A stretch of DNA of 29,803 nt from an uncultured Thermodesulfatator sp. (GTDB lineage Bacteria; Desulfobacterota; Dissulfuribacteria; Dissulfuribacterales; QOAL01), in NCBI GenBank assembly GCA_964581255.1, contig CAZOMT010000007.1, forward strand, positions 1 to 29,803, given 5' to 3'. Positions 2,341 through 29,803 of the stretch are shown one piece after another. A model generated the notes under the pieces. The model was given only the letters and a program-made list of their open reading frames with translations, was not told where the DNA came from and did not search any database. How positions within the stretch are numbered: position 1 is the first letter of the stretch; each line of letters opens with the position of its first letter. The position numbers were made by a program, and so were the translations under genes.

Positions 2341-2417
2341 ACCCTGCCAAAATTGCAATTACAAAAATTTTAAATTTTAACAGAGTTATGATGACTCAAC
2401 TCAAAATGCAATAAAGG

Positions 2418-4712: not shown

Positions 4713-4722
4713 TATCCATGCC

Positions 4723-7575: not shown

Positions 7576-7607
7576 AATGATACTCCCTTTCTCTATCTCC
7601 CCTTTGA

Positions 7608-9725: not shown

Positions 9726-9742
9726 TATAGGTACTCAGTTCC

Positions 9743-10483: not shown

Positions 10484-10485
10484 TT

Positions 10486-10839
10486 TCAGGCTCCAAGAAA
10501 TTTCAGCCAGATGGATCGTCCAAGCACAATAATATCTCCTGGACTTACAGCTACCTTGTCTCCAGGGATTGGTGGACTATCATTTTTCTTCCAGATCTCT
10601 GTTTCTGTTCCATCCGTAGCAATTATCAAGGTGCCATTAGTGCTTCCCTTGCCATCGTTTCCGGTGTCAATGACAAAGTAGTTTTCCTTTACATGATCAA
10701 TTACTGCATGTCTCTGGCTGACCATCCCAGCATAGCCAATGGGTATGTCATTTTGGGCTCCGCGGCCAAGGGTCACCCTGTCCCTATTTATTTCTACCTT
10801 TTGGGCATCTTCAGGCCCAAACATCACCTCAAATCTCAT
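10486..10839 (-). CDS. FHA-domain protein (phosphothreonine-binding)
   Basis: 117 aa containing VTLGRGAQNDIPI...VSQRHAVI...GSTNGTLI, the canonical FHA G-R / S-x-x-H / N-G signature. Its start overlaps the upstream kinase stop by 11 nt. Confidence 0.85.
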   Translation of the reverse strand: MRFEVMFGPEDAQKVEINRDRVTLGRGAQNDIPIGYAGMVSQRHAVIDHVKENYFVIDTGNDGKGSTNGTLIIATDGTETEIWKKNDSPPIPGDKVAVSPGDIIVLGRSIWLKFLGA

Positions 10840-12181: not shown

Positions 12182-12228
12182 GAATTTTATCATTTTTTAA
12201 CAAAATAAAGCAAGTAGATTTGTTCCTT

Positions 12229-15200
12229 ATGAAGGTGCGGCAAGATGTAGGAACTGATGTATCAGTTGCTTTCTGTAGTACACATTCGTGGTTTTCAGAA
12301 AGCGGCATTATCTATCCAATCAATATCCAGGTCTCATCTAATGGCGCGGATATTCCTATCAGCTACCGTATAGGCTCTCCAATCAAGGGTACTTTCCTTA
12401 GGGTGGGTGACCCAATCGGAGGAAACAGGTGGCGAGTTCTTAAGCGCCTGGGATCAGGCACAACAGGCGTTGTCTATCTTGCTTTATCCCAGACAAATGG
12501 AGAACTGGTTGCTGTTAAAACAATAAAGCAGGATCTTGCAGTCGGGTCTGAGTCCGACATTAGCGACTTTTTTTATTATGAAGCCCTTGCCTGGACACAG
12601 GTAGGACGTCATCCAAATGTCTTATGGGCCAGAGATGTGGTAAGTGTTGCCAAGAAGGTATGGGTGAGCATGGATTATATTCCTGCTCCAAAGGGGCTGT
12701 ATGGAAGTTCGCTTCGCAATTGGATCAAGTTTCGACGTCCTTTCAGCCTGAAGCAGATTCTTCTTTGGGCAGTCCAATTTTGCCTTGGGATGGAACACGC
12801 ATTGCGAAACGGGATTAAGTGTCACAGGGATATAAAACCTGGAAATATCCTCATAGATCCGGAGAAAAGGGTAAAGATAGCTGACTTCGGCCTGGCTGTA
12901 TATACGGATAGAAGAAGGTCAGGAGTCGTAAGGTGTGGCACCCCCCAATATATGTCTCCGGAACAGTTCGAAGGTGTGGACGAGGTGGATGTGCGAAGCG
13001 ATATATACAGCTTCGGTGTGGTCTTATTCGAGATGTCCACAGGAAACCTTCCCGTTTCACCACCCCCGCATTTAAAAGAACAATACTTCCTTGCCCACCC
13101 AGATTTTCGGAGGCTCTCATGGGAGCTTTGGCGCAAGGTACACAGGGAACAATCCCCTGCCAACATTGGCGGGCCTTTGGGGCCGATCATACTCAAATGT
13201 CTTGAGAAGGCCCCACACCACAGGTTTCAGAGCTTTGCCGAGCTACGCAGTGCGCTCTTGCAGCTTTGCCGCAGGCTGGGTATCGCTGTTGAGTTACCTG
13301 AGGTTACAGGACCTTCAACACATGAACTTAACGTCAGTGGAGTCCAGCTACTGGCGCTTGAGATGTTTGATGAGGCCATGGGATATTTTGACAAGACCCT
13401 TGAGCGAGAAACAATGAACATGCACGCCATAAATGGTAAAGGCCTTTGTCTTTATTACCTTGGTCAACATGAAAAAGCCATCAAGTGCTTTCAGAAGGTC
13501 CTTGATCAAGACGGTCAGGATATTTGTGCCCTGGTGGGAAAGGGACTTTGCCTACAGGGCAAAGGTGATTTCGAGCAGGCTGGAAAGTTTTTTCAAGAGG
13601 CGCTTTACGTAAATTCTTCTCTACCCCATGTATGGTATCACATGGGCGAGAACTTTTTGGGCCTTGGGCAGCAGAGGAAGGCAAGGAAATGTTATTTAAA
13701 GGCTCTTAGTCTTCTTGTAGCCCTTAAATGCCAAGACGAGGCCTGTACGCTGATAAAGTCCATTGAAAGATACTTTCCGGGTGACATCCAGCTTATGCTG
13801 TTTCACATCTGGGCGCATAGGTTAAGAGGACAGGTGGAAAACAAACTGATGGATTATTTGTCTATAACCAAAGACAGTTTTGTCGCCCCTGAGGATGATC
13901 CTGAATTTGCCGGGATACTTGCTGGAACATATAAAAGGTTATGGGCTGCAGCACCTGAAAAAAACATGGATAAACTTGAAGAGGCCTATAGGCTCTACCA
14001 TACCGCATGGCTTGGCTCTGGCAAGACCAATACCTATGTGGGCATCAACGCGGCTACACTTGCCCTGTTTCTTGGAAGAGCCGAGGAGTCGAGAGAGACC
14101 GCCAGAGAAATAAAAAAGATATATGAAAACCGCAGCCTCAATGACCTTACAGATTCTGAATCTTCATATTCAAGCTATTGGGATCGGGCGACCCTTGCTG
14201 AAGCTGAACTTCTTCTAGGACACCTTGGCAAGGCACGGCGCATCTACCAGGAAGTCATGGACCTTTACAGGGAAAAAAGGACCTATGTGGATAGCTCAAT
14301 GGATCAGATAGACCTAATCCTTCCTCGCCTTGGATTGTCGCTGAATGCAATAGATTTCTGTGGCCAGCAACCCAGCTCGCCTGGGGTAAGAAGTGTGAGA
14401 TTTGGGATTACTGGCCACAGGGCACTGGAGGATCCAGCCAGGGTTTCAGAGGGTCTAAAGATAGCTGTTGAGACCATCAGGCGTAAACTTCCCCCTGATA
14501 CCGTCTTTGAGATCATCTCACCTCTGGAAGAGGGTGCTGACAGGATTGCGGCAAATGTTATGTTGAAAGAATTTCAAGCCTTGCTTTGGGCAGTCTTGCC
14601 ATTTGATCCAAAGGATTACATGGCACATTTTGGTGGCAGTAATTCCCAATCCACAAAGGAATTCAGGAAATTTCTTAATCAGGCCGAAGAACTGACTATA
14701 CTATCTCCAGCAAACGATATGAACGAGGCCTACAGCAATGCTGGACGGTATGTAGTGGACAACTGCGACATCCTTATAGCCGTATGGGATGGCAAGAAGG
14801 CCAGGGGAGAAGGTGGGACTGAAGAAATCGTAGCCTATGCCAGGGACAAAGGGCAACCGCTTATCTGGATTGAATCCGTCCCCCCCTGTGGCATTCATTT
14901 TGAGAGATTAGACAGGCTTAACACTTTAGACTTTACAAAAAGGAATTTTGATATGTACAAACCAAAACCTATTGACACCTCCAATATCCATCTGTCTGAT
15001 GATCTTCTTGAGCTTACGGAGCTTCTTGCTGAAAACGCCCATGAGAACTGGGCAAAAAAGCGTATGGATGAAGGCTGGACTTATGGCCCCGAGCGGGATG
15101 ATGCCGCAAAGAAACACCCAGACCTTATACCATATACAGAGCTTTCTGCATCAGAGAAGGAATACGACCGCAAGATGGCCCTTGAAACCCTGAAGGCAAT

Positions 15201-15234
15201 AATCGCATTAGGATACAAGATCTGGAAAGAATAG
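12229..15234 (+). CDS. Multidomain Ser/Thr kinase: kinase - TPR - DUF4071-like helical region - SLOG (YpsA-like) - RyR domain
   Basis: Start is ATG 12229, with an alternative TTG at 12220.
- Kinase (~12429-13270): LGSGTTGVVY, VAVK, HRDIKPGN (12823), DFG, GTPQYMSPE.
- TPR-like repeats: ~13320-13720.
- Helical region (~13750-14290): AGTYKRLW...YVGINAATLALFLG, resembling the MAP3K-TRAF-binding/DUF4071 signature.
- SLOG/YpsA-like (~14386-14880): GITGHR, SPLEEGADRIAANV, AVLPF, DILIAVWDGKKARGEGGTEEIVAYA.
- RyR repeat (~15025-15210): AENAHENWAKKRMDEGWTYGPERDDAAKKHPDLIPYTELSASEKEYDR. Confidence 0.75.
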   Translation: MKVRQDVGTDVSVAFCSTHSWFSESGIIYPINIQVSSNGADIPISYRIGSPIKGTFLRVGDPIGGNRWRVLKRLGSGTTGVVYLALSQTNGELVAVKTIKQDLAVGSESDISDFFYYEALAWTQVGRHPNVLWARDVVSVAKKVWVSMDYIPAPKGLYGSSLRNWIKFRRPFSLKQILLWAVQFCLGMEHALRNGIKCHRDIKPGNILIDPEKRVKIADFGLAVYTDRRRSGVVRCGTPQYMSPEQFEGVDEVDVRSDIYSFGVVLFEMSTGNLPVSPPPHLKEQYFLAHPDFRRLSWELWRKVHREQSPANIGGPLGPIILKCLEKAPHHRFQSFAELRSALLQLCRRLGIAVELPEVTGPSTHELNVSGVQLLALEMFDEAMGYFDKTLERETMNMHAINGKGLCLYYLGQHEKAIKCFQKVLDQDGQDICALVGKGLCLQGKGDFEQAGKFFQEALYVNSSLPHVWYHMGENFLGLGQQRKARKCYLKALSLLVALKCQDEACTLIKSIERYFPGDIQLMLFHIWAHRLRGQVENKLMDYLSITKDSFVAPEDDPEFAGILAGTYKRLWAAAPEKNMDKLEEAYRLYHTAWLGSGKTNTYVGINAATLALFLGRAEESRETAREIKKIYENRSLNDLTDSESSYSSYWDRATLAEAELLLGHLGKARRIYQEVMDLYREKRTYVDSSMDQIDLILPRLGLSLNAIDFCGQQPSSPGVRSVRFGITGHRALEDPARVSEGLKIAVETIRRKLPPDTVFEIISPLEEGADRIAANVMLKEFQALLWAVLPFDPKDYMAHFGGSNSQSTKEFRKFLNQAEELTILSPANDMNEAYSNAGRYVVDNCDILIAVWDGKKARGEGGTEEIVAYARDKGQPLIWIESVPPCGIHFERLDRLNTLDFTKRNFDMYKPKPIDTSNIHLSDDLLELTELLAENAHENWAKKRMDEGWTYGPERDDAAKKHPDLIPYTELSASEKEYDRKMALETLKAIIALGYKIWKE

Positions 15235-15281: not shown

Positions 15282-15327
15282 TCGTTTTTATAGTCTTTAG
15301 TATAGCCACGCCTTGGGAGGGGAGGAG

Positions 15328-16371
15328 ATGGGTTCATATCGGATATTCATCAGCTATTCCCACGAAGACAGAGGCCTGGTTGAGACTGTTGTCGGCATCT
15401 TAGAGGAAAATGGTCTTAGACCAATGTGGGATGCGGGTTTTACGTGGGGCCTGGGCTTTCACGAACAGATAAAGGATTTTATTGCCCATGCCCACGTATT
15501 CATTCCCATCATAACCAAGACCTCAAGCAACAGAGGTTGGGTGCATCAAGAGATTGGTTATGCCTTGGCTTTGAACATCCCGATTCTTCCCTTGACTGTT
15601 GGGGAAGTTCCTCCTGGTCAGATGCTTCAGCACCTGCAGTCTATATCATGGGACGGTAACGACATAAAAGGCCTAAAGATACAACTCACTAAGGCTACGT
15701 TTGATTCCTTAGTTAAGATTATCGGTCGGAACTCCCGTGCCCTGTTCGAATGTGCAGAACACCATGAAGAACGTACCTCCATGATCATCGAGTATGCCAC
15801 TAAGGTACGCAACATGAATGCCTATGGCCATGTCCGTTTGAAAGGTGCATTGAGTTCTTTTCAGATCCCAGACAAACCCTGTTTTCACCCTGCATGGAAG
15901 GAACGTTACAACTATGAGCCCAACCGTTATCATTGCCAGCAGCTTCGCAGGGAACGAAAGGTTCTGGAAGAACATGCCAGGGAGAAGGGTTGCAGCCTTA
16001 TAATTGATCCATATGTTGATTACAGAAATTATGGAGTTTCAGCAAGAAGGGCCCGTCTTGAGACACTCCTTGAATTTCTGGAGTCCATAGATGCTGAAAA
16101 GATCCGTGTTGCCATCCATAAGGACATGCCAAAAGGCCAGAATCTGACCATTGTTGGAGACTGGTTTGCTGCTGAAGCTGTTTCAGTGGCAGTGGGAGGA
16201 GGGTATCAACAGACCATTTTTACGCGGCATGCACCTACTATCCGGGAGCAGATCAAGATATTTGACGAGGAGCTGGAATTTGTGCTCAAGAGTAATGGAA
16301 TTGATGTGGACTCTTCAAGGGATGAAGCTATAGCCTGTATAAAGAAAATACTTGAAGGAATACCTAAGTAA
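15328..16371 (+). CDS. TIR-domain protein with an uncharacterised ~220-aa C-terminal domain
   Basis: ATG 15328 has GGAGG (15316-15320) 7 nt upstream; the ORF track's TTG 15313 is less likely. N-terminus YRIFISYSHEDRGLVE...HVFIPIITKTSSNRGWVHQEIGYALAL is a bacterial TIR pattern (FISYSH.D ... W...E). It includes the glutamate at the position of the TIR NADase catalytic Glu. I see no recognisable motifs in the C-terminal region. Confidence 0.8.
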   Translation: MGSYRIFISYSHEDRGLVETVVGILEENGLRPMWDAGFTWGLGFHEQIKDFIAHAHVFIPIITKTSSNRGWVHQEIGYALALNIPILPLTVGEVPPGQMLQHLQSISWDGNDIKGLKIQLTKATFDSLVKIIGRNSRALFECAEHHEERTSMIIEYATKVRNMNAYGHVRLKGALSSFQIPDKPCFHPAWKERYNYEPNRYHCQQLRRERKVLEEHAREKGCSLIIDPYVDYRNYGVSARRARLETLLEFLESIDAEKIRVAIHKDMPKGQNLTIVGDWFAAEAVSVAVGGGYQQTIFTRHAPTIREQIKIFDEELEFVLKSNGIDVDSSRDEAIACIKKILEGIPK

Positions 16372-16918: not shown

Positions 16919-17890
16919 ATGCATCCTTTGGAAAACAATCAGGAAGAGAAGTTTCTCAACTATGAAAGGATACAGTTTGAGGGAAAGTGGCTTTGGGTAC
17001 CGTCTCCTGTAGAGCTTCCTATAAGGCGTATAATCGACAGGGATGACATAATGGAGAAGGCCCTTGCAGCCTGGGCCAGGCTGGATGGTCTTCCACCCCT
17101 GAATTTTCGTTTCTACGGCCCTCATGGAACTGGCAAAAATGCCATTGTCTACAGGCTGGCACAGCTTCTAAAAAAGGATCTTTACATTATAAATGGGCAT
17201 GAGGAGCTTGGGCCAGAGGACATCGCGTGTTCTGCCACCATGACCTCAAGCCAAACTATAGAGTACGTGGCCTCTCCCCTTTTTGCAGCTATGCTAAGGG
17301 GTGGGATCTGCTTCTTTGACGAGATCGGCAAGGCCCCTTCAAGGGCCCTCGCCCCTCTTGCCTCTGTCCTGGATGACCGCCGCACCCTCACCTCGGTCCT
17401 TGCCGGAATTCATCTTAAGGCTCACCAGGATTTCCTTTTCTGTGCAGCCCTCAATGAAGACGAGGAAGGGGGCTTTGGGCTTCCGGGCTTTATAGACGAG
17501 CGGACAAGGCCAGCCATCTATGTAGGGTGTCCAGATGTTAGTACCCTGGAAAAGATTTTGAGGAGTCATCTGCCAGGGGCATCAAACCTGTGGTTTACGG
17601 TCTTTCTGGAGGAGTTAAGAGACAAGGAGATTTCCCCAAGGGTTGCTATTATCTTGCTTAGCTACGCATACAGGCTGTCCCGGGCAGATGGCCGCGGGCT
17701 TACCAGAAGGCACATAAGAGGCTTTCTCAGGCGGGCCTGGGAGGACCTAGAAAAGGGGAAGACAGACTATTTCGAGGAACGGGAAGATCAAGATTGTCAG
17801 GATGATCAAGATATAGACGAGGGGGAAGACGATGATGTGGACGGGGTGGACCTCAATTTGCTCGTGCAGGAAGATGAAGCCCTTCATTGA
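16919..17890 (+). CDS. MoxR-like / AAA_5-type AAA+ ATPase with an acidic C-terminal tail
   Basis: AGGAGG (16905-16910) lies 8 nt before ATG 16919. Walker A is FYGPHGTGKNAIV, with Asn where Thr/Ser is canonical. Walker B is ICFFDEIG. FCAALNE is a possible sensor-1 Asn. The tail is EDQDCQDDQDIDEGEDDDVDGVD. Confidence 0.7.
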   Translation: MHPLENNQEEKFLNYERIQFEGKWLWVPSPVELPIRRIIDRDDIMEKALAAWARLDGLPPLNFRFYGPHGTGKNAIVYRLAQLLKKDLYIINGHEELGPEDIACSATMTSSQTIEYVASPLFAAMLRGGICFFDEIGKAPSRALAPLASVLDDRRTLTSVLAGIHLKAHQDFLFCAALNEDEEGGFGLPGFIDERTRPAIYVGCPDVSTLEKILRSHLPGASNLWFTVFLEELRDKEISPRVAIILLSYAYRLSRADGRGLTRRHIRGFLRRAWEDLEKGKTDYFEEREDQDCQDDQDIDEGEDDDVDGVDLNLLVQEDEALH

Positions 17891-19979
17891 GTATCCTGGG
17901 TACGGCAGGCTCTTTGTACTTCCCTACATAAGGAGCAGGCTAGTATTTGCCCAACTTGCGGCAAGAGCCCTTGAAGAGGAGAGGTTCGACCAGGTGCTTG
18001 TGGACCTTCCCTACTTTTTAAACAATGGAAGCACACTTGAGTCCGCCTTAGGACACTTTCCCCTTGTAAGCATACTAATATTAAAAAGGAACGATTCCAG
18101 CCATGTCTTTTTCCCCTTTGTGCCTAGTGACGCAGGTTGTATCTCTGCCCGGATTGCCATGGAAAGATCTATCCCTTTTGAGTGTATAGATGACTCAAGA
18201 CTGCCGTACTTTCCGGAAGGATCCATGTTTCGTCCCTCTGTGACTGGACTTCCAGACGACTATCTTGTCTTTGATATGGGACTTAAAGAATATTTTGCCC
18301 CTTTCTGGAGCCACCTTGACTATCTTTGGGAGAAAGCTTCTCACATTGAGCGCTATTTTACCTCCCTTCGTATAGCTGTTCTTGGAGAGCGTCTTAAAAA
18401 GGCCCTTTCACAAGGGGAAAAGGTATTATTTGTGTGTGAAACCAGTCTTTGGCAGGCTATAAAGAGGTGGCTTGATGGCGAGAGCACACCTCCAAATCCT
18501 ATACACATAAACTGCAAGGACCTTCAAGGCGCTCTTGTCTTTGAGAGTCCACTAAACCTCTGGTCTCGAGGCTTGTTGGATGACTATCCTTTGCTGGTCT
18601 TTAAGTTTTGGAAGAGTCTTGAGGACAAGGAGGGATCATCCTTTGACAAACTTGATGCCTTCAAAAGGGTCATGGAGGAACTGCTTCAACCGGAAAGTCT
18701 CACAAAGGCAGGGAATCCTTCTATCCGTCTTCTTATTATCTTTAAGCAGTACCTCAAGACCCAAATGGTGTCCCATAAGAGGGTGATCCCTCATCCCACA
18801 GACCACCTTTTTGAGAGTGCAAAAAGCTGTATGGGTATGGACATGGCCACACACATTGCAAGAAGGTTCCTTTATTATTTTTCTCCTCTGGATTTTATAA
18901 TCTCTATGTCCCAGTACCCTCTTTTTCTAGTCAGACAGGATGAAATAGTCCCAAGCGAAGGTGCCTCTGAGCTGCCAGACCTTACAGATGCAAGGTACTA
19001 CTATTTCTTTGATATTTCTTCAGGTCCTTATCACTTTAAGCCAGGCCATCCAGAGGAAAATCTGGTATACTGGAAAAATGTTATATTGCCTTCCATGACC
19101 AGAAAAGAATTGGTCGAGCTGAACAGAAACGGAGGAGAGTGCACGATAAGATGGACCGTGGCTCAGGACTATGGGCTTCATGCCAGGGTATGTTCTTATG
19201 TGAAGGAAAAGGTAACAAGGGCAGCGGCAACTGTCAGGATAAGGCGTAGCTGGGGACAGATGATGGATGGGATCCACTGGAAGGCTACACTTTGTGCTTT
19301 AGCAAGGGGTGAAAAGGCAGTATACGTAAAGGAGAGAGCCGGAAGGAAGGCAGGTTTTCCAAGGATGAATGATTTTACTCCGGTGGTGTTTCTCTTTTCC
19401 AGGGAGGCCGACAGATCTTACTCTTGTGTCATACACGACAGTAACGAGAAGCTAAGGAACATGGAGCTTGATGGCTATTATCCAAATTCAGATACATATC
19501 CTCAGGGTGATCTCGATATGGTCTACTCAGTATTTTATACTATAAGTAGCAATAGAACATTTTGGAGCCCCCACTTTGCAAGAGAGCACTTAACATCCAT
19601 TGCCATGCTGTGCACTATAAGAGCGATGGGATCTGAGAGATATCAAGCCATCACCAGGCGGCCAAAAAGGTATCAGTGCCGCATACACCCAAGGGACGAT
19701 AAAGAATTGCAAGACTTTTCCCTCTTGGAAAAGGGGGTTGCCTGGGCCGTAAAGTATGCAGAGGATGTGGTAGTGGTGGTGCACTATCCGGGATGGAGTC
19801 CTTCTGCAAGGCTATTAAGTTTTGCTCGGAAAAAGGGGGTAATGCTTGAGTGCATTTCCATGTCCTGTCTTTCAAAACGCCTTGTAAGGAGGCTTCGACA
19901 TTTGCATTTTGTGTCCACAGCCTTGAAAAGACACCCTGAATATGAGAGGATTGTGAGGAGATTTTTGCATTTGGTGTGA
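17832..19979 (+). CDS. Large uncharacterised protein translationally linked to the MoxR-like ATPase
   Basis: Uninterrupted ORF. ATG 17832 has GAGG 9 nt upstream and overlaps the upstream gene by 59 nt. Alternative ATG 17874 (MKPFIEYPGYG...) overlaps by 17 nt. I found no motif I can name with confidence. Its size and position next to a MoxR-type ATPase recall the YehL/YehM (DUF5682) pairing, but that is unverified. Confidence 0.55.
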   Translation: MMWTGWTSICSCRKMKPFIEYPGYGRLFVLPYIRSRLVFAQLAARALEEERFDQVLVDLPYFLNNGSTLESALGHFPLVSILILKRNDSSHVFFPFVPSDAGCISARIAMERSIPFECIDDSRLPYFPEGSMFRPSVTGLPDDYLVFDMGLKEYFAPFWSHLDYLWEKASHIERYFTSLRIAVLGERLKKALSQGEKVLFVCETSLWQAIKRWLDGESTPPNPIHINCKDLQGALVFESPLNLWSRGLLDDYPLLVFKFWKSLEDKEGSSFDKLDAFKRVMEELLQPESLTKAGNPSIRLLIIFKQYLKTQMVSHKRVIPHPTDHLFESAKSCMGMDMATHIARRFLYYFSPLDFIISMSQYPLFLVRQDEIVPSEGASELPDLTDARYYYFFDISSGPYHFKPGHPEENLVYWKNVILPSMTRKELVELNRNGGECTIRWTVAQDYGLHARVCSYVKEKVTRAAATVRIRRSWGQMMDGIHWKATLCALARGEKAVYVKERAGRKAGFPRMNDFTPVVFLFSREADRSYSCVIHDSNEKLRNMELDGYYPNSDTYPQGDLDMVYSVFYTISSNRTFWSPHFAREHLTSIAMLCTIRAMGSERYQAITRRPKRYQCRIHPRDDKELQDFSLLEKGVAWAVKYAEDVVVVVHYPGWSPSARLLSFARKKGVMLECISMSCLSKRLVRRLRHLHFVSTALKRHPEYERIVRRFLHLV

Positions 19980-20037: not shown

Positions 20038-22677
20038 ATGCATGATGGATTAAGTGAAGTGAAAAGGAGGGGTGATCCTGAAGCCATACTCTCCATTTGG
20101 CGTACAGAGGTCATTAAAGGGCCAGAGGTGTCTTCGCTACAGAAACCTATTGGTGACTGGCCGGATCAGATAAGTAGAGAGGCAGAAGAACGTGTTCGAG
20201 GACTAGGGGCAGATATCCCATGGGGCTATGGCCAAAAGTTTGGGGAGAGGGATTTCAGAGTCACAGGGCTGAGGGCAGGTGGGATAGGAGTGGTCCTCCT
20301 TGTTGAGTCCGACACCCCTGAGGGGAAAAGGTTTTATGCGGCAAAGACCCTCCTTCCTTTTCTAAAACCCGAATATCTTAAAAAATCTTTACAAGAGCAG
20401 GAGCGTATCTCCCAGGCCTTTCTTGAAGAGGCCCTCCCCTGGCTTGAGATGGGCCAGCATCCTCACATCGTTCCTGTGCTTCTTCTTGAGAAGGTTGTTC
20501 ACCTGGGGCTTAACAGGAGCATTCCATTTATCTTTTCTCTGTTCATGCCAAGGGGAAGCCTTAAAGAATATTTAGCTCAAAGGGGCAGGTTAAGTCTAAG
20601 GGAGTCCTTGGCCCTTGGCATCCAGCTTTGTGACGGGCTTGTCCATGCCTACGGACATGGCCTTGATGCCCATCTCGATCTTAAACCAGAGAATATCATG
20701 GTCCATGACGACGGGGTCTTTAGAATTACGGACTTCAGCTCAGGTGTAATTGGCACTCCTGGCTACATGGCCCCCGAGCAGGTACCGGCCCTGTGGCAAA
20801 AACGCGGGACAGGGTTTGTCACCAATGATATTTCAATGGATCACAGGGCGGACCAGTTCGCCCTTGGCATTGTTTTGCTTGAGGCCTTGAATGGAGAGCA
20901 TCCATTTCCCATCTGCTTTGACGCTTGCGGAAGTATGGGATGGGCCAGGGAGTATCTGGACAAGGGAGTAGGCAGCCTCAAAGACAACAGCAGCATCCCT
21001 GAGGGTTTGAAGAAGATTCTTTCCCGCATCCTGTCCCTGGCACCTGATGACCGGTTTCCTGATATGTCCGTTCTAAAGGCCGAGTTGCTTGATCTGTATG
21101 AGAGGGAATTTGAGCGCTACAAGGCACCAGGAGTCGAACTAGATTATTCGGCCAATTGGTGCTTTGAAAGGGGGATGGCGTTTTACACCCTGGGCCGTTA
21201 TGCCTCTGCCGAGGAGCCATTTAATGAAGCCCTTTTTGTCTTTCGATCAATGCCAGGTACAGAGCTTGAGCAGGCTATCTGCAAGGTTAGTCTTGGGACT
21301 GTATTGGGATTGATCGGTCGTTTTGAGGAAGCAGTGTCATTATATGAAGATGCGCTTATTATATATCGCTCAATACCTGGTACAGAACTCAAGCAGGCAG
21401 CTTGCATAATACACCTTGGGCTTATCTATTCAGATACAGGTCATTTTGAAGAAGCGATCTCAGCATATGAGGAGGCCCTTAGCATTTTTCGATCAATCCC
21501 AGGAACAGAGTTTGAGCAGGCTAAGTGCATGGGCAATCTTGGAAATGTCTATCAAAAAATCGGTCTCTTTGAGGATGCGATGTCTATCTATAGAGAGGTA
21601 CTTAGTATCTACCGTCTGCTCCCAGGAACAGAGTTTGACCAGGCTATCTGTACAATGAACTTTGGGACCAGCTGTTCTCAGGCAGGTCATTTTGAAGAAG
21701 CGATGTCAGCATATGAGGAGGCCCTTGGCATTTTTCGATCAATCCCAGGAACAGAATTTTATCAGGCTATCTGCACAATGGAGTTTGGACTCGTTTATTT
21801 GGGGAGCGGTCATTATGAGGAATCGCTACCTTACTTAGAGGAAGCCCTTAGCATCTATCAATCAATTCCAGGCACTGAGCTTAAGCAGGCTAACTGCATG
21901 AAAAATATAGGAGATGCCTTTGACAGGACTGGTCGTTTTGAGGAAGCAATGTCATACTTAGAAGGAGCTTTTAGTATTTATAGCTTGATTCCCGGTACTG
22001 AAATTAATCAGGCTAAATGCATTATGAGCCTTGGGAACGTGTATTCGAATATCGGTCATTTTGATGAAGCGATTTCAAAATATGAGGAGGCACTTGATAT
22101 CTATAGTTCAATTCCAGGCACTGAGCTTAACCAGGCCCACTGCACAGTGAATCTTGGAAATGTTTATTTAGACATGGATTGTCCTGAGGAAGCAATATCA
22201 GCCTTTGAGGAGGCATTTAGTATCTATAGCTCGATCCCTGGTACAGAGCTTTACCGGGCTACCTGCAAAAAGAAGCTTGGGGATGCCTATTGGCAGACAG
22301 ATCAGTTTGATAATGCATATTCAGCTAATTTATACGCTATTAATATTTATAGTTCAATTCCAGGTAAAGAGCACGATTTGGCTATCTGTATAGCAAATCT
22401 TGGAAATGTGTATGCAGACTTAGGTTACATTGAAGAAGCGCGTTCAGCCTATGAAAAGGCCCTTGGTATGTTTTGTTCAATCTCTGATACAGAACTTGAA
22501 CAGGCGCAATGTATGTGCAGCTTGGCCGTCATTTACTATCAAGAAATAGAGGATCCCGATAAGGCCTTCCGGTATGCTGTTTACGCCCTAAAGCTCTGTG
22601 AGCCTTTTCCCCCGGAAAAAACAGCCAAGATAAGAGAGGTCTGTAAGACGGTTTTAGAACGTCTGGGTCTAATCTGA
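20038..22677 (+). CDS. Non-RD Ser/Thr kinase-like domain fused to 11 tandem TPR units
   Basis: Kinase (~20260-21090): LRAGGIGVV, YAAKT, HLDLKPEN (HRD changed to HLD), DFS in place of DFG, GTPGYMAPE. From ~21140 to 22600 there are 11 repeats of a ~41-42-aa unit: EEA.S.YEEAL.IYRSIPGTE..QA.C..NLG.VY...G.F. Confidence 0.8.
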   Translation: MHDGLSEVKRRGDPEAILSIWRTEVIKGPEVSSLQKPIGDWPDQISREAEERVRGLGADIPWGYGQKFGERDFRVTGLRAGGIGVVLLVESDTPEGKRFYAAKTLLPFLKPEYLKKSLQEQERISQAFLEEALPWLEMGQHPHIVPVLLLEKVVHLGLNRSIPFIFSLFMPRGSLKEYLAQRGRLSLRESLALGIQLCDGLVHAYGHGLDAHLDLKPENIMVHDDGVFRITDFSSGVIGTPGYMAPEQVPALWQKRGTGFVTNDISMDHRADQFALGIVLLEALNGEHPFPICFDACGSMGWAREYLDKGVGSLKDNSSIPEGLKKILSRILSLAPDDRFPDMSVLKAELLDLYEREFERYKAPGVELDYSANWCFERGMAFYTLGRYASAEEPFNEALFVFRSMPGTELEQAICKVSLGTVLGLIGRFEEAVSLYEDALIIYRSIPGTELKQAACIIHLGLIYSDTGHFEEAISAYEEALSIFRSIPGTEFEQAKCMGNLGNVYQKIGLFEDAMSIYREVLSIYRLLPGTEFDQAICTMNFGTSCSQAGHFEEAMSAYEEALGIFRSIPGTEFYQAICTMEFGLVYLGSGHYEESLPYLEEALSIYQSIPGTELKQANCMKNIGDAFDRTGRFEEAMSYLEGAFSIYSLIPGTEINQAKCIMSLGNVYSNIGHFDEAISKYEEALDIYSSIPGTELNQAHCTVNLGNVYLDMDCPEEAISAFEEAFSIYSSIPGTELYRATCKKKLGDAYWQTDQFDNAYSANLYAINIYSSIPGKEHDLAICIANLGNVYADLGYIEEARSAYEKALGMFCSISDTELEQAQCMCSLAVIYYQEIEDPDKAFRYAVYALKLCEPFPPEKTAKIREVCKTVLERLGLI
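21140..22600 (+). repeat. Intragenic tandem repeat (~123-126-bp units) encoding the TPR array
   Basis: Eleven (S/L)IPGTE-type units. Some units are near-identical at the nucleotide level. For example, ~75 nt starting at 21439 and at 21685 (ggtcattttgaagaagcgat.tcagcatatgaggaggccctt.gcatttttcgatcaatcccaggaacaga) differ at only a few positions. Confidence 0.8.
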
Positions 22678-25079: not shown

Positions 25080-25156
25080 TAAAGATGATATCAAATATGG
25101 GAGAGGGAAGTGGAGATTGATTGATCCTATTGGAGGTGAGTATCTGGAGGTTTTCC

Positions 25157-25774
25157 ATGGGAGGAGAACTAAGAATAGGTAGAATTCTTGTCTCTACTGG
25201 GGCAAACGGCCCTGGAACAAGGCTTGTGATTTGGTTTCAGGGCTGCCCCTTTTGCTGCAAGGGATGCTTTAATCCCGAATTTCATGACACTGAAGGCGGA
25301 AGCCTCATGTCACGCAGTGAGCTTTTCAACCGTATTGTCTGTCAGCCAGACATTGAAGGAGTCACGTTTACAGGTGGGGAGCCCCTCCTTCAGGCATCAT
25401 CACTCATCCCTTTGGCCCAGGCCATAAAGGGCGCAGGCCTTACAATCGTCTGCTACACGGGCTACACCCTTGAACAGATCAAGGTCGGCATTCCCCCTTC
25501 AGCAAGGCATCTTGTTCCATATCTGGACATACTCATAGACGGGCTCTTTGAAGAGAAGGAAAAGGCCCCGTTGCTTTGGAGGGGAAGCCGCAATCAGAGG
25601 GTACATTTCCTCACTAACAGATACGAACACTTGGCAGAGCAGGCAAACCAGGAGGGCCGAAGGGAGGCAGAGGTCCTGGTTGGACCGGATTCCATTGCTA
25701 TGACAGGCATATTTGACATTGAGTTTTGGGAGAGACTAAAGGCCAAGTTAAGTGGCCATAACAATGAGAGGTAA
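25157..25774 (+). CDS. NrdG/PflA-like radical-SAM activase-family protein (4Fe-4S CxxxCxxC)
   Basis: GGAGG (25146-25150) lies 6 nt before ATG 25157. NGPGTRLVIWFQGCPFCCKGCFNPE (cluster motif ~25241-25267) and VTFTGGEPLLQ match the anaerobic RNR-activase-type family pattern. The size (~205 aa) also fits. Confidence 0.75.
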   Translation: MGGELRIGRILVSTGANGPGTRLVIWFQGCPFCCKGCFNPEFHDTEGGSLMSRSELFNRIVCQPDIEGVTFTGGEPLLQASSLIPLAQAIKGAGLTIVCYTGYTLEQIKVGIPPSARHLVPYLDILIDGLFEEKEKAPLLWRGSRNQRVHFLTNRYEHLAEQANQEGRREAEVLVGPDSIAMTGIFDIEFWERLKAKLSGHNNER

Positions 25775-25779
25775 ATAAA

Positions 25780-26940
25780 ATGCTTTGTCCCTATTGCCTT
25801 GAAGATTGCATACCAACGATCAAAGGAAACGAGTACCAGTGCCCTAAGTGCAAGGAGCGTCTTGAAAGGGAATATGTTGAAAAAAGGCATATTCCAAGGA
25901 CCACTATAGGACTTATTGGGTTTTCCGGCCACGGTAAGACAGCTTATATTACCAGTCTTTTTTATGTCTTGAAAGATATTCTCATGCAGAAATCATTCTG
26001 GCGCGATTTCACTTTAGTGGCGCTTGACAAAAACACAATGGCTGGAGTGTACGACAGAGTACAATTCCTAAAGGATGGGGAGCTTCCGCCACCAACTCCT
26101 TTGAACTTTCCAAGGCCTTGTATCGTAAAGTTTTCAGGCCTGCCGTTTGAAGACAATACCTACAGGGAATACTTCGTCACATTCTACGACATAGGCGGGG
26201 AGGTATATGGAGATGAAGAACACATAACAGATAAGGCAAAGATCATTGCCAAGTCAATAAATGTTCTTTTTCTTATAAGCATTTCAGACAGAAAAGGCAA
26301 CTGGCAAGACAGGATATACAGGCTGCTCAACACATATATCCTTGGCGTAAGGAACAAGCTGAAACTAGACCCAAAGAAGTACCAGAACCTGATTGTTGTC
26401 TTTACAAAGGCAGATGAGATCCTGGACAAGCTATCTGGCGAGCTGAGCAATTACCTTATTACCGGTACCTATACGTGCTATCCCCGCCTGGACGGAACCT
26501 TGGAGGAGATCGATAAGAAATCCAGGATGATAGAGCAATGGCTCAGGGAACAGGATGCCGGCGGGTTCGTAAACCTGGCGCGCCAGCAGTTTAAGAGTGT
26601 GCACTACACTGTTGCATCCGCACTTGGCGCTAGACCTGATGGACAAAGGCTTCATGCAGAGATTCAGCCAGATGATCCGAAGCGGGTTCTTGATCCATTT
26701 ATCCTTGCTCTAAACAACCATTACCCGCTTCCTTTTAGACTCAAGGACTGGATCAATAAGCGTGCCGGGATCTTTTTGGCAGTAATCCTTGCTATCATCA
26801 TAAGTATCTTTTTGCTGATGAATTTCTTTGGGAAATCTCCTCCCCTTCCCCTGAAATTCCATACCAGCACAGTGCAACACAGCAAAACCAACATCCATGA
26901 CACCTTGCAGAAACCAAGCCTCAAGGGGGAAGTCAGATGA
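25780..26940 (+). CDS. Zn-ribbon + P-loop GTPase with a C-terminal transmembrane anchor
   Basis: The start lies 5 nt after the upstream stop.
- Zn-ribbon: CPYC...x13...CPKC.
- G1: GFSGHGKT (25918-25941).
- G3: DIGGE (26188-26202).
- G4: TKAD (26404-26415).
- TM helix: GIFLAVILAIIISIFLLMNFF (~26763-26830). Confidence 0.75.
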   Translation: MLCPYCLEDCIPTIKGNEYQCPKCKERLEREYVEKRHIPRTTIGLIGFSGHGKTAYITSLFYVLKDILMQKSFWRDFTLVALDKNTMAGVYDRVQFLKDGELPPPTPLNFPRPCIVKFSGLPFEDNTYREYFVTFYDIGGEVYGDEEHITDKAKIIAKSINVLFLISISDRKGNWQDRIYRLLNTYILGVRNKLKLDPKKYQNLIVVFTKADEILDKLSGELSNYLITGTYTCYPRLDGTLEEIDKKSRMIEQWLREQDAGGFVNLARQQFKSVHYTVASALGARPDGQRLHAEIQPDDPKRVLDPFILALNNHYPLPFRLKDWINKRAGIFLAVILAIIISIFLLMNFFGKSPPLPLKFHTSTVQHSKTNIHDTLQKPSLKGEVR

Positions 26941-28799
26941 AGATTGATCACTTCATATACACAAGGGTGGATGAGGACATATCCCCGTGGGAGAAAAGTG
27001 GTTTTCAGATGGCCTTTTACCCCCTGGAGCTTTTCAGTAAAAAGGCCCGCATCCATATAGAGGGCCGCATTCACTGGGCAGAGGATATCAAGCCCTCAAG
27101 CAAGATATCAGTCTTTTTCCAGAACCTAAAGGGAGAGGACAGGCTTATCATCCTTTATTACACGGATCAGCCAGAGGCCACAGACAAGTTTGGAAGAAGG
27201 GGCATATTTCTATGCCACGGCCTGGTCTTCCCCCGTACAATCTGGCAGGCCTTGCCAAGCCCACTGCGTGCCCTTGACCTGGTAAAAGACCACATCTTTA
27301 AAGATATAAATGACGCCCTTTCCTCTTCCCTTGTTGACAGGGCAACTGGAAACTTGGCGCCCATCACCATTGATTCCTCAAAGCTTGAGGGTGTGTCACA
27401 GGGGCTTGCCGCCCTTGGCTCTGAGCTTGAGCGGCAGCTTGTGATTCTTCTTAACCGGGCGGCCCGCTCCCAGGAAGAGATGCCCCGGTTTCTTCTTCAT
27501 GGCACACCTGACCATGTCTCCCAATTCATGGACAGGATTGTGGCCTATGTGCCCGATGCCTTCAAGCCCAACCTTGGCTGGGATCCTGCCCTTGATGGCG
27601 GAAGCCTGTTTCACAGCCCGTTCATGATCGCTGGTTACTCGGCCTCGAGGCCTACAGGGGCAGATCCGGTCCATATAGACCTTGAGTCAGTTACCATGGA
27701 ACCTTCGCCTGGAACCACCCTTGACCTGTCTCCAAGGACATCCTACGAGCACTGGTTCATCCGTTGCCAGGATAAGATCAGGCAAAAGCGCCAGATCGAG
27801 GATGTGTACCGCGCGGACCTCTTTTTGAACAAAAAGGGCGGGCCAGGCCCGTTCAAGCCAGATCCATGTTTTTTATCTCTTAACCAAGAGGCCATAGAGA
27901 GGCTTTTCTCAGAAACATGCCAAAGGGTGTTGGACCCGTCCCTCTGCTCCTTTGTTTTCCAGTACACAGGGCTTGATAAGAAATTAGAGCTTCTTTTGCA
28001 AGAGCTTCCCATGAAAAGGATCGCCAGTATCCTGGACAGCATAATCCCTGACAGGGAAAGTCCAGTTCCTGGAAGCATAAAGACCCCTTTCCCAGATCAA
28101 TTACTAAAACATGCAGGGCCAGTTCTAAGGTGCATACACCATTTATGGCTGGAAGGGAAACTGACCCCAGAGGATCTTTCGTCTTTTTCCCATGGGGAAA
28201 AGCTAAGGCTCTGCCGCTACATCCTTCTTTATTTCACAAAAGAGCCCTGGGTTTCAGATATCCTCAAGGCCGAAAAAGAGATCTTTGACCAGCTCATGTC
28301 AGAGGCAAGGGGCCGCATCACAGATGTCCTTAAAACCCACCTTGTCACAAGAAAGAATCTCTCAGGTGAGCTTGCCGGACTCATCGTCAGGGAAGCCCTA
28401 AGACAAGACAAGGCAGAAGGCATCCTTGATGACGATTTCAACTACTTCCCCCTGCTGGAACAGATGATCAAGGCTGCAAGGTTCTCTGAATCAGATATCA
28501 ATGCGCTTTTCGCTCAAGGGCCTGGGGTATGGCAGAGGCTGCCAAAGGATGCATTTCCTTTCCTGCAGGCCTTCTTGATGCCTAAGATAGGGGTAGCAGA
28601 AGAGGTTTTGAACGATTCGCGCATAAGATTGAGCCTTCTTCAGGTGCTTGTCAAAAGGCACAACTACAAAGAGCGAGATTTGTCAGGCCTCAACTACACA
28701 AAAGAAGAGATAGAGAAGGCAATTTTAGATGCAAGGTCCAAGGAAGGCCTGCTTGGCAGGATAAAATCCATGTTTGCCTTTAAGGGGAGGAGATCATGA
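26937..28799 (+). CDS. Uncharacterised 620-aa protein; N-terminus resembles GTPase-associated protein 1 (GAP1)-type domains
   Basis: There is an ATGA start/stop overlap with the GTPase gene (26937-26940). N-terminal HFIYTR...x11...SGFQMAFYP and later GRRGIFLCHGLVF resemble, from memory, the (Y/H)T...GFQ ... GR.G.(Y/F).H.LV signature. That signature belongs to proteins encoded next to conflict-system GTPases. The rest is mostly helical with no motif I recognise. Confidence 0.5.
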   Translation: MKIDHFIYTRVDEDISPWEKSGFQMAFYPLELFSKKARIHIEGRIHWAEDIKPSSKISVFFQNLKGEDRLIILYYTDQPEATDKFGRRGIFLCHGLVFPRTIWQALPSPLRALDLVKDHIFKDINDALSSSLVDRATGNLAPITIDSSKLEGVSQGLAALGSELERQLVILLNRAARSQEEMPRFLLHGTPDHVSQFMDRIVAYVPDAFKPNLGWDPALDGGSLFHSPFMIAGYSASRPTGADPVHIDLESVTMEPSPGTTLDLSPRTSYEHWFIRCQDKIRQKRQIEDVYRADLFLNKKGGPGPFKPDPCFLSLNQEAIERLFSETCQRVLDPSLCSFVFQYTGLDKKLELLLQELPMKRIASILDSIIPDRESPVPGSIKTPFPDQLLKHAGPVLRCIHHLWLEGKLTPEDLSSFSHGEKLRLCRYILLYFTKEPWVSDILKAEKEIFDQLMSEARGRITDVLKTHLVTRKNLSGELAGLIVREALRQDKAEGILDDDFNYFPLLEQMIKAARFSESDINALFAQGPGVWQRLPKDAFPFLQAFLMPKIGVAEEVLNDSRIRLSLLQVLVKRHNYKERDLSGLNYTKEEIEKAILDARSKEGLLGRIKSMFAFKGRRS

Positions 28800-28864: not shown

Positions 28865-29803
28865 ATGAGGTTAAGAGGTCTCTGGATTCTCAGGGTCATT
28901 TCTCTCGCGGTCTGTGCGGTATTGCTCCTTTCGGAGGTGGGGTGGGGTGCGACCACCTATGATGTAAAGAGGTGGGAGAGAGAAAAGGCAGTAGAGCCAT
29001 TGATAAAAGCGCTCAAGGATTCTGACTCGTCTGTTCGTAAGGCCGCAGCCCAGGCATTGGTAGTAATTGGCAAACCAGCAGTAGGGCCATTAATAGAAGC
29101 GCTCAAGGATTCTAACTCGTCTATCCGCGCATTTGCAGCCTTGGCATTGGGGAAGATAGGTGATAAGCGAGCAGTAGGGCCATTGATAAAAGCGCTTAAG
29201 GATTCTGACTCGTCTGTTGTCCGCGCATTTGCAGCCTTGGCATTGGGGGAGATAGGTGACAATCGCGCAGTAGGGCCATTGATAAAAGCACTCAAGGATT
29301 CTTCCTGGGCTGTCCGCGCAGTTGCAGCCTTGGCATTGGGGAAGATAGGTGATAAGCGAGCAGTAGGGCCATTAATAGAAGCGCTCAAGGATTCTCACTC
29401 GTGGGTCCGCTATGATGCAGCCGAGGCATTAGGTAAGATAGGTGACAAGCGAGCAGTAGAGCCATTGATAAAAGCGCTTGAGGATTCTGACTGGTATGTG
29501 CGCTATCAAGCAGCCGAGGCATTGGGGAAGATAGGTGACAAGCGAGCAGTAGAGCCATTGATAAAAGCGCTCAAGGATTCTGACTCGTGGGTCCGCTATG
29601 ATGCAGCCGAGGCATTGGTAAAAATTGGCAAGCCAGCAGCAGAGCCATTGATAAAAGCGCTCAAGGATTCTGACTCGGATGTCCGTTGGCGAGCAGCCGA
29701 GGCATTGGGGAAGATAGGTGATAAGCGAGCAGTAGGGCCATTGATAGAAGCGCTCAAGGATTCTAACTGGCTTGTCCGTGATAATGCAGCCGAGGCATTG
29801 GGG
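28865..29803 (+). CDS. Secreted HEAT-repeat (PBS-lyase HEAT-like) protein, 3' end outside window
   Basis: This gene is not in the supplied ORF track because no stop falls inside the window. My manual translation from ATG 28865 (GGAGGG at 28852-28857) is open for 313 codons to nt 29803. It starts with MRLRGLWILRVISLAVCAVLLLSEVGWG, a signal-peptide-like stretch. About 9.8 units of AV(E/G)PLIKALKDSD..VR..AAEALGKIGDKR follow. Confidence 0.8.
   Translation, partial: MRLRGLWILRVISLAVCAVLLLSEVGWGATTYDVKRWEREKAVEPLIKALKDSDSSVRKAAAQALVVIGKPAVGPLIEALKDSNSSIRAFAALALGKIGDKRAVGPLIKALKDSDSSVVRAFAALALGEIGDNRAVGPLIKALKDSSWAVRAVAALALGKIGDKRAVGPLIEALKDSHSWVRYDAAEALGKIGDKRAVEPLIKALEDSDWYVRYQAAEALGKIGDKRAVEPLIKALKDSDSWVRYDAAEALVKIGKPAAEPLIKALKDSDSDVRWRAAEALGKIGDKRAVGPLIEALKDSNWLVRDNAAEALG
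28988..29803 (+). repeat. Tandem 90-96-bp coding repeats (HEAT units), highly similar at the nucleotide level
   Basis: Units begin at 28988, 29078, 29171, 29267, 29360, 29453, 29546, 29636 and 29729. They share the core gcagta(g/a)ggccattgataaaagcgctcaaggattct. Units are contiguous and in frame, with no unique spacers. Confidence 0.85.

Follow-up and report, generated by a model that had tools for sequence, protein, structure and literature searches.

A NrdG-derived radical-SAM protein linked to a DO-GTPase2 and a divergent GAP1-N2 protein in a candidate bacterial conflict system

Introduction

The closest described relatives of the locus reported here are the GTPase-centric DO-GTPase/GAP1 systems published in 2020 by Kaur, Burroughs, Iyer and Aravind (eLife; PMC7159879), for which a role in conflict is a prediction. 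A glutamate in the Walker B motif and an N-terminal zinc ribbon are features of the DO-GTPase family, enzymes of the caspase and trypsin type are typical of the conflict systems in the same study, and the published DO-GTPase/GAP1 systems come from Actinobacteria, Firmicutes, Planctomycetes, Verrucomicrobia and Chloroflexi (PMC7159879). The present locus was found in an uncultured Thermodesulfatator sp. (assembly GCA_964581255.1), in a stretch of 29,803 nucleotides that covers positions 1 to 29,803 of contig CAZOMT010000007.1 and is called the window throughout. Three co-directional, coupled genes at 25157–28799 on the forward strand encode a radical S-adenosylmethionine (radical-SAM) protein of 205 aa, a GTPase of 386 aa and a protein of 620 aa.

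An earlier note, made from the sequence alone, had read these genes as an NrdG/PflA-type activase without a glycyl-radical partner, a TRAFAC-like GTPase and a GAP1-like protein, and could not match the trio to a described system. This last statement holds for one part of the trio: the recruitment of the radical-SAM protein is new, but the GTPase–GAP1 pair is already described. To our knowledge, every characterised NrdG/PflA-type activase serves a glycyl-radical enzyme. Based on the families of the three proteins, their intact motifs, their linkage in other loci and the consistent lack of an adjoining NrdD, the trio is assigned with high confidence to the DO-GTPase/GAP1-N2 systems. The complete statement, that it forms the core of an undescribed variant of these conflict systems with a protein-directed radical output, is given a probability slightly below even.

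Organisation of the locus

All three open reading frames (ORFs) were found where the earlier note had placed them, coupled by a gap of 5 nt and then by an ATGA overlap, and every motif quoted for the three proteins was present in their translations (Table 1). Homologues numbered more than 2000 for the radical-SAM protein, 24 for the GTPase and 340 for the 620-aa protein, so the ORFs are genuine genes and not chance ORFs. An operon with identical proteins was present on four other contigs, evidently from the same organism in other metagenomes. The trio is indeed linked, but as a unit it had been drawn too small, because the operon extends past position 28799 with a HEAT-repeat gene from 28865 onwards.

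A scan for promoters and terminators between 16.5 and 29.8 kb yielded fewer sites than shuffled controls and gave no evidence on the operon boundaries. The leader of the radical-SAM gene is unchanged on the organism's other contigs. A match to the Rfam family Rhodo-rpoB (RF03074) across the start of the same gene (25140–25227, forward strand), with 34.7 bits against a gathering threshold of 33.6 and an E-value of 0.03, was judged to be probably a chance match.

The radical-SAM protein

The radical-SAM protein matched the Pfam family Fer4_12 with an E-value of 1.3e-36. Against the NCBIfam model of NrdG (TIGR02491) it scored 119.2 bits, under the curated cutoff of 126.1, with positions 7–151 of the 154 of the profile aligned. 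It is composed of a complete NrdG core of about 150 aa and a C-terminal extension of about 55 aa. In a family alignment of 29 relatives, to which the invariant residues of Table 1 refer, the residues of the GPGxR loop, the [4Fe-4S] motif, the GGEP motif and the WRGSxNQ motif were strictly conserved.

The extension was present in all close and distant relatives (tiers 1 and 2, see below) and missing from the short NrdG proteins; those that adjoin NrdD end a few residues past the [FY]RGSxNQ motif. It was modelled as a helix, a beta-hairpin and a second helix, with a predicted local distance difference test (pLDDT) score of 74–82. A midpoint-rooted neighbour-joining tree of the NrdG core did not place the extension-bearing proteins in a single clade, and monophyly is not claimed.

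The AlphaFold model of the complete protein had a pLDDT of 88, and its best fold match in the PDB was PFL-AE, which activates pyruvate formate-lyase (E 3e-8). By sequence, PFL-AE was also the only close solved relative (E 3e-17); the stretch with NGPGTR and the cluster motif aligns to DGPGIR...CLMRCLYC of this enzyme. The classification as an activase of the NrdG/PflA type was thereby upheld.

Below PFL-AE, the fourth-best structural match was QueE (E 3.5e-5), followed by viperins at probabilities of 0.9–0.97, and the sole matches of the protein in PADLOC-DB v2 were generic domain matches to models of prokaryotic viperins (pVip) with 27–31 bits. With these likenesses in mind, the enzyme might act on a nucleotide or another small molecule and form an antiviral or signalling product, possibly derived from GTP, with the GTPase–GAP1 pair as a gate; the neighbouring gene does encode a nucleotide-binding protein and no protein substrate motif was found. 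Such a role is nonetheless considered unlikely, as the glycyl-radical activases are clearly closer in both sequence and fold, the resemblance to viperin is that of the generic radical-SAM core, and all members of the family keep the GPGxR loop that PFL-AE also has. The operons also carry no conserved nucleotide kinase, cyclase or receptor domain.

As the earlier note had observed, no glycyl-radical enzyme is encoded in the window: the Pfam models NRDD, PFL and Gly_radical matched none of the ORFs of at least 200 aa, and a PROSITE-type glycyl-radical pattern matched none of at least 50 aa. The genome was viewed through this 30-kb contig, and an NrdD encoded elsewhere in the genome falls outside that view.

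A few observations concern radical-SAM genes in related loci. In L004, from the metagenome-assembled genome SZUA-191, two overlapping ORFs stand in place of a single radical-SAM gene (in the region 5803–9752, which also holds the GTPase and GAP1), a sign of a frameshift or of an error in the assembly. In L008, whose radical-SAM protein is assigned to Desulfacinum infernum by UniRef, two more radical-SAM genes lie upstream (1377–3746), one with a faint SPASM match. A 225-aa Fer4_12-type protein is encoded in L100 at 634–1311, adjoining a homologue of the DNA polymerase III beta-clamp.

Linkage in related loci

A scan of metagenomes with the radical-SAM alignment gave 80 loci, to which more were added by exact look-up. 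The loci were scored with hidden Markov models built for each component and for NrdD, the identity of NrdD being confirmed by Pfam NRDD at 2e-190. They were divided into three tiers: close relatives of the radical-SAM protein of at least 240 bits (tier 1), distant relatives that kept the extension (tier 2) and short canonical NrdG proteins (tier 3).

Among the 17 distinct loci of tier 1, the DO-GTPase was found in 13 (and in one more where it was cut by the contig end), GAP1 in 12, AAA_2 in 11, HEAT in 9 and NrdD in none. The 24 loci of tier 2 contained AAA_2 twice and neither DO-GTPase, GAP1, HEAT nor NrdD. In tier 3 (50 loci), NrdD was present in 41 and AAA_2 in two, while DO-GTPase, GAP1 and HEAT were not found. 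Linkage to NrdD was therefore absent from all 41 loci with the extended form of the radical-SAM protein (17 of tier 1 and 24 of tier 2). Co-occurrence in other genomes, which the earlier note had named as a check on the trio, thus bore it out.

The association was approached from two sides: six of six relatives of the radical-SAM protein that were picked solely for their long contigs shared an operon with a DO-GTPase gene, and when searched from the side of the GTPase and GAP1, these two were always together. In 12 independent loci the radical-SAM gene was located directly upstream of the GTPase gene, the two overlapping by up to 11 nt or lying up to 32 nt apart, and in 12 related loci GAP1 followed immediately downstream, as in the window. 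The adjacency to DO-GTPase in tier 1 persists at identities of only 44–62%. More than 2000 relatives of the radical-SAM protein were found at E<1e-20, and at least 41 of the examined loci had the extended form. The source organisms (a hydrothermal-vent metagenome, Desulfacinum, Desulfococcaceae) appear to be anaerobic, which fits with oxygen-labile radical chemistry.

An ordinary NrdG that serves an NrdD encoded elsewhere in the genome, with an incidental position beside the GTPase, would agree with the best NCBIfam match and with the JGI annotation of many relatives as anaerobic ribonucleoside-triphosphate reductase activating protein. The sub-cutoff score, the 55-aa extension and the adjacency in tier 1 to DO-GTPase (13/17) instead of NrdD (0/17) all speak against this, and short NrdG does sit with NrdD in 41 of the 50 loci of the same scan. 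This explanation is largely refuted by co-occurrence and is regarded as extremely improbable; the label of ribonucleotide reductase (RNR) activase is almost certainly wrong for this group of radical-SAM proteins.

A class III RNR could also be targeted in trans: activation, mis-activation or blocking of a host or phage NrdD by the radical-SAM protein would then hit the supply of deoxynucleoside triphosphates. The protein has the full NrdG core, lies only 7 bits under the NrdG cutoff and keeps WRGSxNQ, and NrdG homologues are very common in phages, with 2250 phage records matched. Yet no NrdD was linked to any of the 41 extended-form loci, and a partner that belongs to the system itself is indicated both by the extension and by how tightly the gene is coupled to that of the GTPase, which makes a target in trans very unlikely.

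The tier-2 loci (L018, L022, L029–L032, L035, L038, L040, L041, L043, L047, L050, L056, L060, L063, L066, L067, L070, L072, L074, L080, L081 and L092) have other neighbours, including a 701-aa WD40 protein, an AAA ATPase, an MreB/actin-like protein and a PmbA/TldD-like protein. These radical-SAM proteins may belong to other undescribed systems that employ the same enzyme.

The GTPase and its GAP1-type neighbour

The GTPase passed the gathering threshold of the Pfam family PF19993 (DO-GTPase2) with 28.9 bits against 27, over aa 42–276, and PF19993 was pre-annotated on 19 of its 24 homologues. Its zinc ribbon, P-loop, DxxGE-type Walker B and guanine-specificity motifs (Table 1) were present in nearly all of these homologues. 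The 386-aa protein is a member of the DO-GTPase2 family, in agreement with the TRAFAC-like character that the earlier note had given it. The single predicted transmembrane helix was limited to the GTPase of the window and to homologues of 518–568 aa, some of which contain Sel1 repeats; homologues of about 335 aa had none. A tblastn search of plasmids with the GTPase gave no match, and neither the GTPase nor GAP1 was matched in PADLOC-DB v2.

For the 620-aa protein, which contains the motifs HFIYTR, SGFQMAF and GRRGIFLCHGLVF, no Pfam family was found at E<=10, nor any NCBIfam or PADLOC match. A word-index search returned only four homologues, against 340 cluster representatives recovered by an exhaustive search of 1.84 billion proteins with the family profile. 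Scanning of the genome collection with the GAP1 alignment gave only four loci as well, since a single peptide pattern was used. The family profile also detected distant relatives of about 550 aa (E 1e-12 to 1e-27). PF20013 (GAP1-N2) was carried by 34 out of 44 of these, GAP1-M by one and GAP1-C by none. Comparison of the family with GAP1-N2 by hhalign gave a probability of 100% and an E-value of 4.2e-45 over 427 columns, which cover the N and M regions. The likeness to GAP1 seen by the earlier note was in this way recovered through the family profile, and these profile comparisons make the 620-aa protein a divergent, N2-type GAP1. Locus L004 encodes GTPase and GAP1 together in a single fusion protein of 1102 aa.

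The structural model of GAP1 had a pLDDT of 81 and a predicted template modelling score of 0.68. It consists of an alpha/beta region (aa 1–130), a mixed region (about 130–260) and an all-alpha C-terminal half, and the topology of the N-terminal domain, beta-beta-alpha-beta-beta-beta-alpha-alpha, is the longin order. The two most conserved motifs of the protein coincide with the two low-confidence loops of the model. The first, SP...GFQ, has its counterpart in the GAP1-N2 relatives with S17, P18 and G23 invariant. The second, D.FGRxGIF, is situated between strands 4 and 5; its D, G, R and G, together with an H, are nearly invariant across these relatives.

In a Foldseek search of the PDB, the top match of the model was C9orf72 in the C9orf72:SMCR8:ARF1 complex (7mge_C), with an E-value of 6.7e-5 and a probability of 0.99, and the next matches were chains of the FLCN-FNIP2 complex. 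The GAP1-N2 sequence profile gave nothing meaningful against the PDB. Longin GTPase-activating proteins (GAPs) employ an arginine finger together with a motif that is conserved in the loop preceding strand 2 (PMC12290439). Given the likeness of the SP..G and GR.G loops to this longin GAP pocket, R87 of GAP1 is proposed as a candidate arginine finger. The model suggests that GAP1 proteins may be bacterial GAPs of the longin-DENN type; longin or DENN domains are not mentioned by Kaur et al. (PMC7159879).

Further components of the operon

A ClpA/ClpB-like, double-ring AAA+ ATPase of 788 aa is encoded 77 nt upstream of the radical-SAM gene, and occupies the same position on the organism's other contigs. 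In 10 related loci the operon included a shorter AAA_2 ATPase (about 615 aa), and the D2 domain of the window protein is 48–53% identical to these proteins over about 160–184 aa. From its position and this similarity, the 788-aa protein is a probable accessory component of the system. Its AAA_2 domain obtained only the generic DolB and PDC-M37B matches in PADLOC.

Downstream of the trio, the HEAT-repeat gene runs off the window; on contig L093 of the same organism the protein has at least 766 aa. Genes for HEAT-repeat proteins adjoin the module in 9 of the 17 related loci. At the DNA level, the gene is a tandem array with a unit of 93 nt (31 aa), with 8.8 copies and 81% matches at 28988–29803 and about 17 copies on L093 (6574–8147). 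This pattern suggests that a variable binding surface was amplified or homogenised recently. An ORF of 143 aa on the reverse strand (28957–29388) is a shadow of the HEAT repeats.

The usual, fuller gene order in the relatives is the AAA_2 ATPase of about 615 aa, p353, p198, in some loci HEAT, then radical-SAM, DO-GTPase and GAP1, and further genes including p318. The N-terminal half of p353 is alpha/beta, and the protein closes with a zinc ribbon of the form CPxC...H...CP. For p198, which has the motifs FPVSKYQFERF and GFRV, sub-threshold FGE-sulfatase matches (E 0.012–0.18) were obtained in three of three tested proteins, and one relative had a weak pre-computed match; as a lead, p198 may be an FGS-type domain like those that are common in published conflict systems. 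Searches of the PDB by sequence with p353, p198 and the 715-aa protein from further upstream in the window yielded nothing meaningful.

Some loci of the window's GTPase–GAP1 subfamily have no radical-SAM gene; what they carry immediately upstream of the GTPase differs by locus (Table 1). As this slot is filled elsewhere by effector or signalling enzymes, the radical-SAM protein behaves as one alternative enzymatic output attached to an unchanging core of GTPase, GAP1 and repeat protein, and it is likely to be the enzymatic output of the system.

A sensory role can be imagined, in which the [4Fe-4S]/SAM site reports redox state, oxygen or the SAM level (for example, a drop in SAM caused by phage enzymes) to the GTPase. 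In favour of it, the translational coupling suggests a stoichiometric complex of the two proteins, and no substrate was found. Against this, all catalytic motifs are strictly conserved in the 29 diverse sequences and the same slot holds genuine enzymes in other loci (caspase, trypsin, metallo-beta-lactamase). We know of no precedent for a sensor among activase-type radical-SAM proteins, and little probability is attached to it.

Proposed mechanism and its weighing

The membrane-anchored GTPase would act as a nucleotide switch. It would be regulated by GAP1, in which the SP..G and GR.G loops may resemble the pocket of longin GAPs of the C9orf72/FLCN type, with R87 as a putative arginine finger. 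The tandem-repeat HEAT protein could offer a variable binding or sensing surface, and the AAA+ ATPase might remodel the complex. The radical-SAM protein would be the output, in the slot held elsewhere by a caspase, trypsin, metallo-beta-lactamase or kinase. It is proposed to remove a hydrogen atom from the loop of a protein or peptide, be it of a system component, an invader or a host protein. This would leave a radical on the protein, or a modification or cleavage derived from one, controlled by the state of the GTPase.

The GPGxR loop of PFL-AE contacts the peptide substrate, and since this loop and the activase fold are kept in the radical-SAM protein, a protein or peptide-loop substrate is favoured. 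The nearest relatives of the radical-SAM protein, PFL-AE among them, all abstract hydrogen from a glycine that lies in the loop of a protein (PMC10665898). The protein-directed radical mechanism is nevertheless put forward tentatively, as possible rather than probable. The wider idea that glycyl-radical-type chemistry was moved from metabolism to a GTPase-switched immune or conflict output, with a target protein that is no glycyl-radical enzyme and with GAP1 as a prokaryotic relative of longin-DENN GAPs, must be called somewhat unlikely.

Several results weigh against the proposed mechanism and the reading of which it is part. No protein substrate site was found, either by motif searches or by comparison of the partners. 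The earlier note had suggested a search for a glycyl-radical-like motif in neighbouring proteins; both a strict and a relaxed pattern missed all eight co-directional genes, while the relaxed pattern detected RITGY in 24 of 39 NrdD controls. When partners with and without a radical-SAM gene were compared, in a small sample in which L005, which has no radical-SAM gene, groups with the radical-SAM-bearing loci, no convincing specific glycine emerged and only G288 of the GTPase stood out weakly. GAP1-N2 proteins that have no radical-SAM gene beside them possess the GR.G loop as well, so in GAP1 it is not a site specific to the radical-SAM protein. The next-best structural match of the enzyme, QueE, acts on a small molecule. 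The window lacks the p353, p198 and p318 genes of most relatives and has a different AAA+ protein. The longin/DENN link consists of one significant Foldseek match, with TM-scores of 0.14 and 0.21, and has no support at the sequence level. Lastly, no experimental study of any DO-GTPase/GAP1 component was found in the literature searched.

The module might also be a housekeeping regulator of the membrane, the cytoskeleton or protein quality control, with no part in conflict or immunity. The conflict role is itself only predicted (PMC7159879), the partners include a chaperone-like AAA+ protein and HEAT repeats, and tubulin-like, vWA, PP2C and kinase genes are found in the window. The distribution is, however, patchy and rare, the enzyme slot is swappable, the repeat proteins are amplified, and TIR and MoxR genes are nearby, features that are typical of conflict systems; a housekeeping function is thus quite unlikely.

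An enzyme with intact catalytic motifs is here added to the DO-GTPase/GAP1 systems, whose outputs were hitherto obscure, and SAM cleavage provides an assayable read-out. A group of activase-like proteins with conserved candidate partners and no linkage to NrdD is a route to new radical-SAM chemistry. Were GAP1 to be C9orf72/FLCN-like, a bacterial GTPase would be paired with a longin-type GAP, which bears on the origin of eukaryotic small-GTPase regulation.

Other genes in the window

A cluster of five genes on the reverse strand encodes a Tubulin_2 protein, a vWA protein, PP2C, a Ser/Thr kinase and a protein without Pfam match. Tubulin with vWA and kinase with PP2C and vWA are two of the three GAP1-N2 themes, reported to be restricted to Firmicutes and Actinobacteria (PMC7159879), and it may be that the entire window forms a single extended island. 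The other loci yielded no homologue of the tubulin. In locus L002, kinase, PP2C and vWA genes are located beside the GTPases. Between this cluster and the AAA+ gene lie kinase, TIR and MoxR genes; together with the overlapping gene for the 715-aa protein, the MoxR gene could represent a further ternary system with a pair of the MoxR-vWA-like kind.

Table 1. Positions of the features described in the text, given for the window unless a related locus is named.
Feature	Position	Strand	Remarks
Radical-SAM gene	25157–25774	+	ATG preceded by GGAGG; TAA stop at 25772–25774
NGPGTR (aa 17–22) and CX3CX2C [4Fe-4S] motif CPFCCKGC (aa 30–37)	25205–25267	+	G18, P19, G20, R22, C30, C34 and C37 invariant
GGEP (aa 73–76)	25373–25384	+	G73, G74, E75 and P76 invariant; putative SAM binding
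WRGSRNQ (aa 141–147)	25577–25597	+	W141, R142, G143, S144, N146 and Q147 invariant
C-terminal extension FLTxRY...E-h-x-h...TG...W..L	25607–25771	+	Absent from canonical NrdG
GTPase gene	25780–26940	+	Separated from radical-SAM gene by 5 nt (ATAAA)
Zinc ribbon CPYC-x14-CPKC (aa 3–24)	25786–25851	+	Two CxxC pairs, kept in most homologues
P-loop GFSGHGKT (aa 47–54)	25918–25941	+	Motif search
Walker B DIGGE (aa 137–141)	26188–26202	+	DxxGE glutamate, family-defining
TKAD guanine-specificity motif (aa 209–212)	26404–26415	+	Motif search
Single predicted transmembrane helix (aa 329–350)	26764–26829	+	Followed by 36-aa tail; Kyte-Doolittle 19-residue window 2.02
620-aa GAP1-N2-type ORF	26937–28799	+	ATGA start/stop overlap with GTPase gene at 26937–26940
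SP...GFQ loop (aa 16–24)	26982–27008	+	Just before beta-strand 2; S16, P17 and F23 invariant; pLDDT <50 at aa 15–25
D.FGRxGIF loop (aa 83–95)	27183–27221	+	R87, G89, I90 and F91 invariant; pLDDT <50 at aa 78–90
ClpA/ClpB-like double-ring AAA+ ATPase, 788 aa	22713–25079	+	AAA_2 7e-61; AAA, AAA_lid_9, ClpB_D2-small, Clp_N
HEAT-repeat protein	28865–29803	+	Runs off window end; HEAT_2 1.7e-76
p353/p198 region, L010	6362–7988		
p353/p198 region, L012	7021–8677		
p353/p198 region, L008	6289–7948		
p353/p198 region, L004	2514–4167		
p353/p198 region, L100	6213–7893		
Slot upstream of GTPase, L007			Two caspase-domain proteins
Slot upstream of GTPase, L006			Trypsin-like
Slot upstream of GTPase, L005			Metallo-beta-lactamase
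Slot upstream of GTPase, L001			Kinase-WD40
DUF4143/AAA_14 ATPase	7–960	+	Cut by window edge
DUF4143/AAA_14 ATPase	1104–1745	-	
775-aa protein	2418–4745	-	No Pfam match; part of five-gene cluster 2418–12136
Tubulin_2 protein, 950 aa	4723–7575	-	2.7e-56
vWA protein	7608–9725	-	
PP2C	9743–10483	-	
Ser/Thr kinase	10829–12136	-	
Kinase-TPR-RyR protein	12220–15234	+	
TIR-domain protein	15313–16371	+	
MoxR-type AAA_5 ATPase	16919–17890	+	
715-aa protein	17832–19979	+	No Pfam or PDB match; overlaps MoxR gene
Kinase-TPR protein	20038–22677	+	

Comparison with known systems

None of the system-specific models of PADLOC-DB v2 matched the components. No defence system that combines a radical-SAM protein with a GTPase, and no NrdG-like protein in a conflict system, was found in the literature searched; the supplement of Kaur et al. 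mentions neither radical SAM nor NrdG.

With the eukaryotic longin GAPs (C9orf72-SMCR8, FLCN-FNIP, GATOR1), GAP1 shares a fold match, the order of strands and helices, a motif before strand 2 and an invariant arginine in a flexible loop. The correspondence is at the level of the fold, and R87 could not be matched residue by residue to R164 of FLCN or R147 of SMCR8.

The peptide-processing modules of the VMAP and FtsH ternary systems, described by Kaur et al. as well (PMC7159879), also place a radical-SAM protein in a predicted conflict system centred on an NTPase, and locus L012 has a gene for an FtsH-like double AAA+ protein adjoining the module. Their radical-SAM proteins are fused to SPASM or related to the Memo-AMMECR1-associated type and accompanied by small peptide genes, whereas the present one is derived from NrdG and has no conserved peptide gene beside it.

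NrdG and the radical-SAM protein have in common the 150-aa core with CX3CX2C, GGEP and WRGSxNQ. The latter differs by its score below the cutoff, some 55 additional C-terminal residues, the lack of adjacency to NrdD and its setting in an operon with GTPase, GAP1 and AAA+ genes. PFL-AE is the closest relative in structure and sequence among solved proteins, with the same GPGxR loop and cluster motif. The radical-SAM protein is shorter, about 130 residues superpose with a TM-score of about 0.5, and no partner of the RVxG[YF] type is encoded nearby.

The DO-GTPase/GAP1-N2 systems remain the nearest. Shared with them are a zinc-ribbon DO-GTPase2 with the Walker B glutamate, GAP1 directly downstream (fused in one relative), a GTPase that is anchored in the membrane and has one or two paralogues, a partner with repeats and swappable effectors such as caspase and trypsin. 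Here, GAP1 is too divergent for a direct match to the Pfam GAP1 families, and tandem HEAT proteins accompany the module in place of the fast-evolving FNIII-repeat protein of the published systems, which was not found. The published N2 themes (tubulin; HSP70/GrpE/DnaJ; kinase-PP2C-vWA) do not include a radical-SAM protein, most relatives of the present locus add AAA_2, the zinc-ribbon protein p353 and p198 with its weak FGE-sulfatase similarity, and their sources (Desulfacinum, Desulfococcaceae, vents) are apparently anaerobes.

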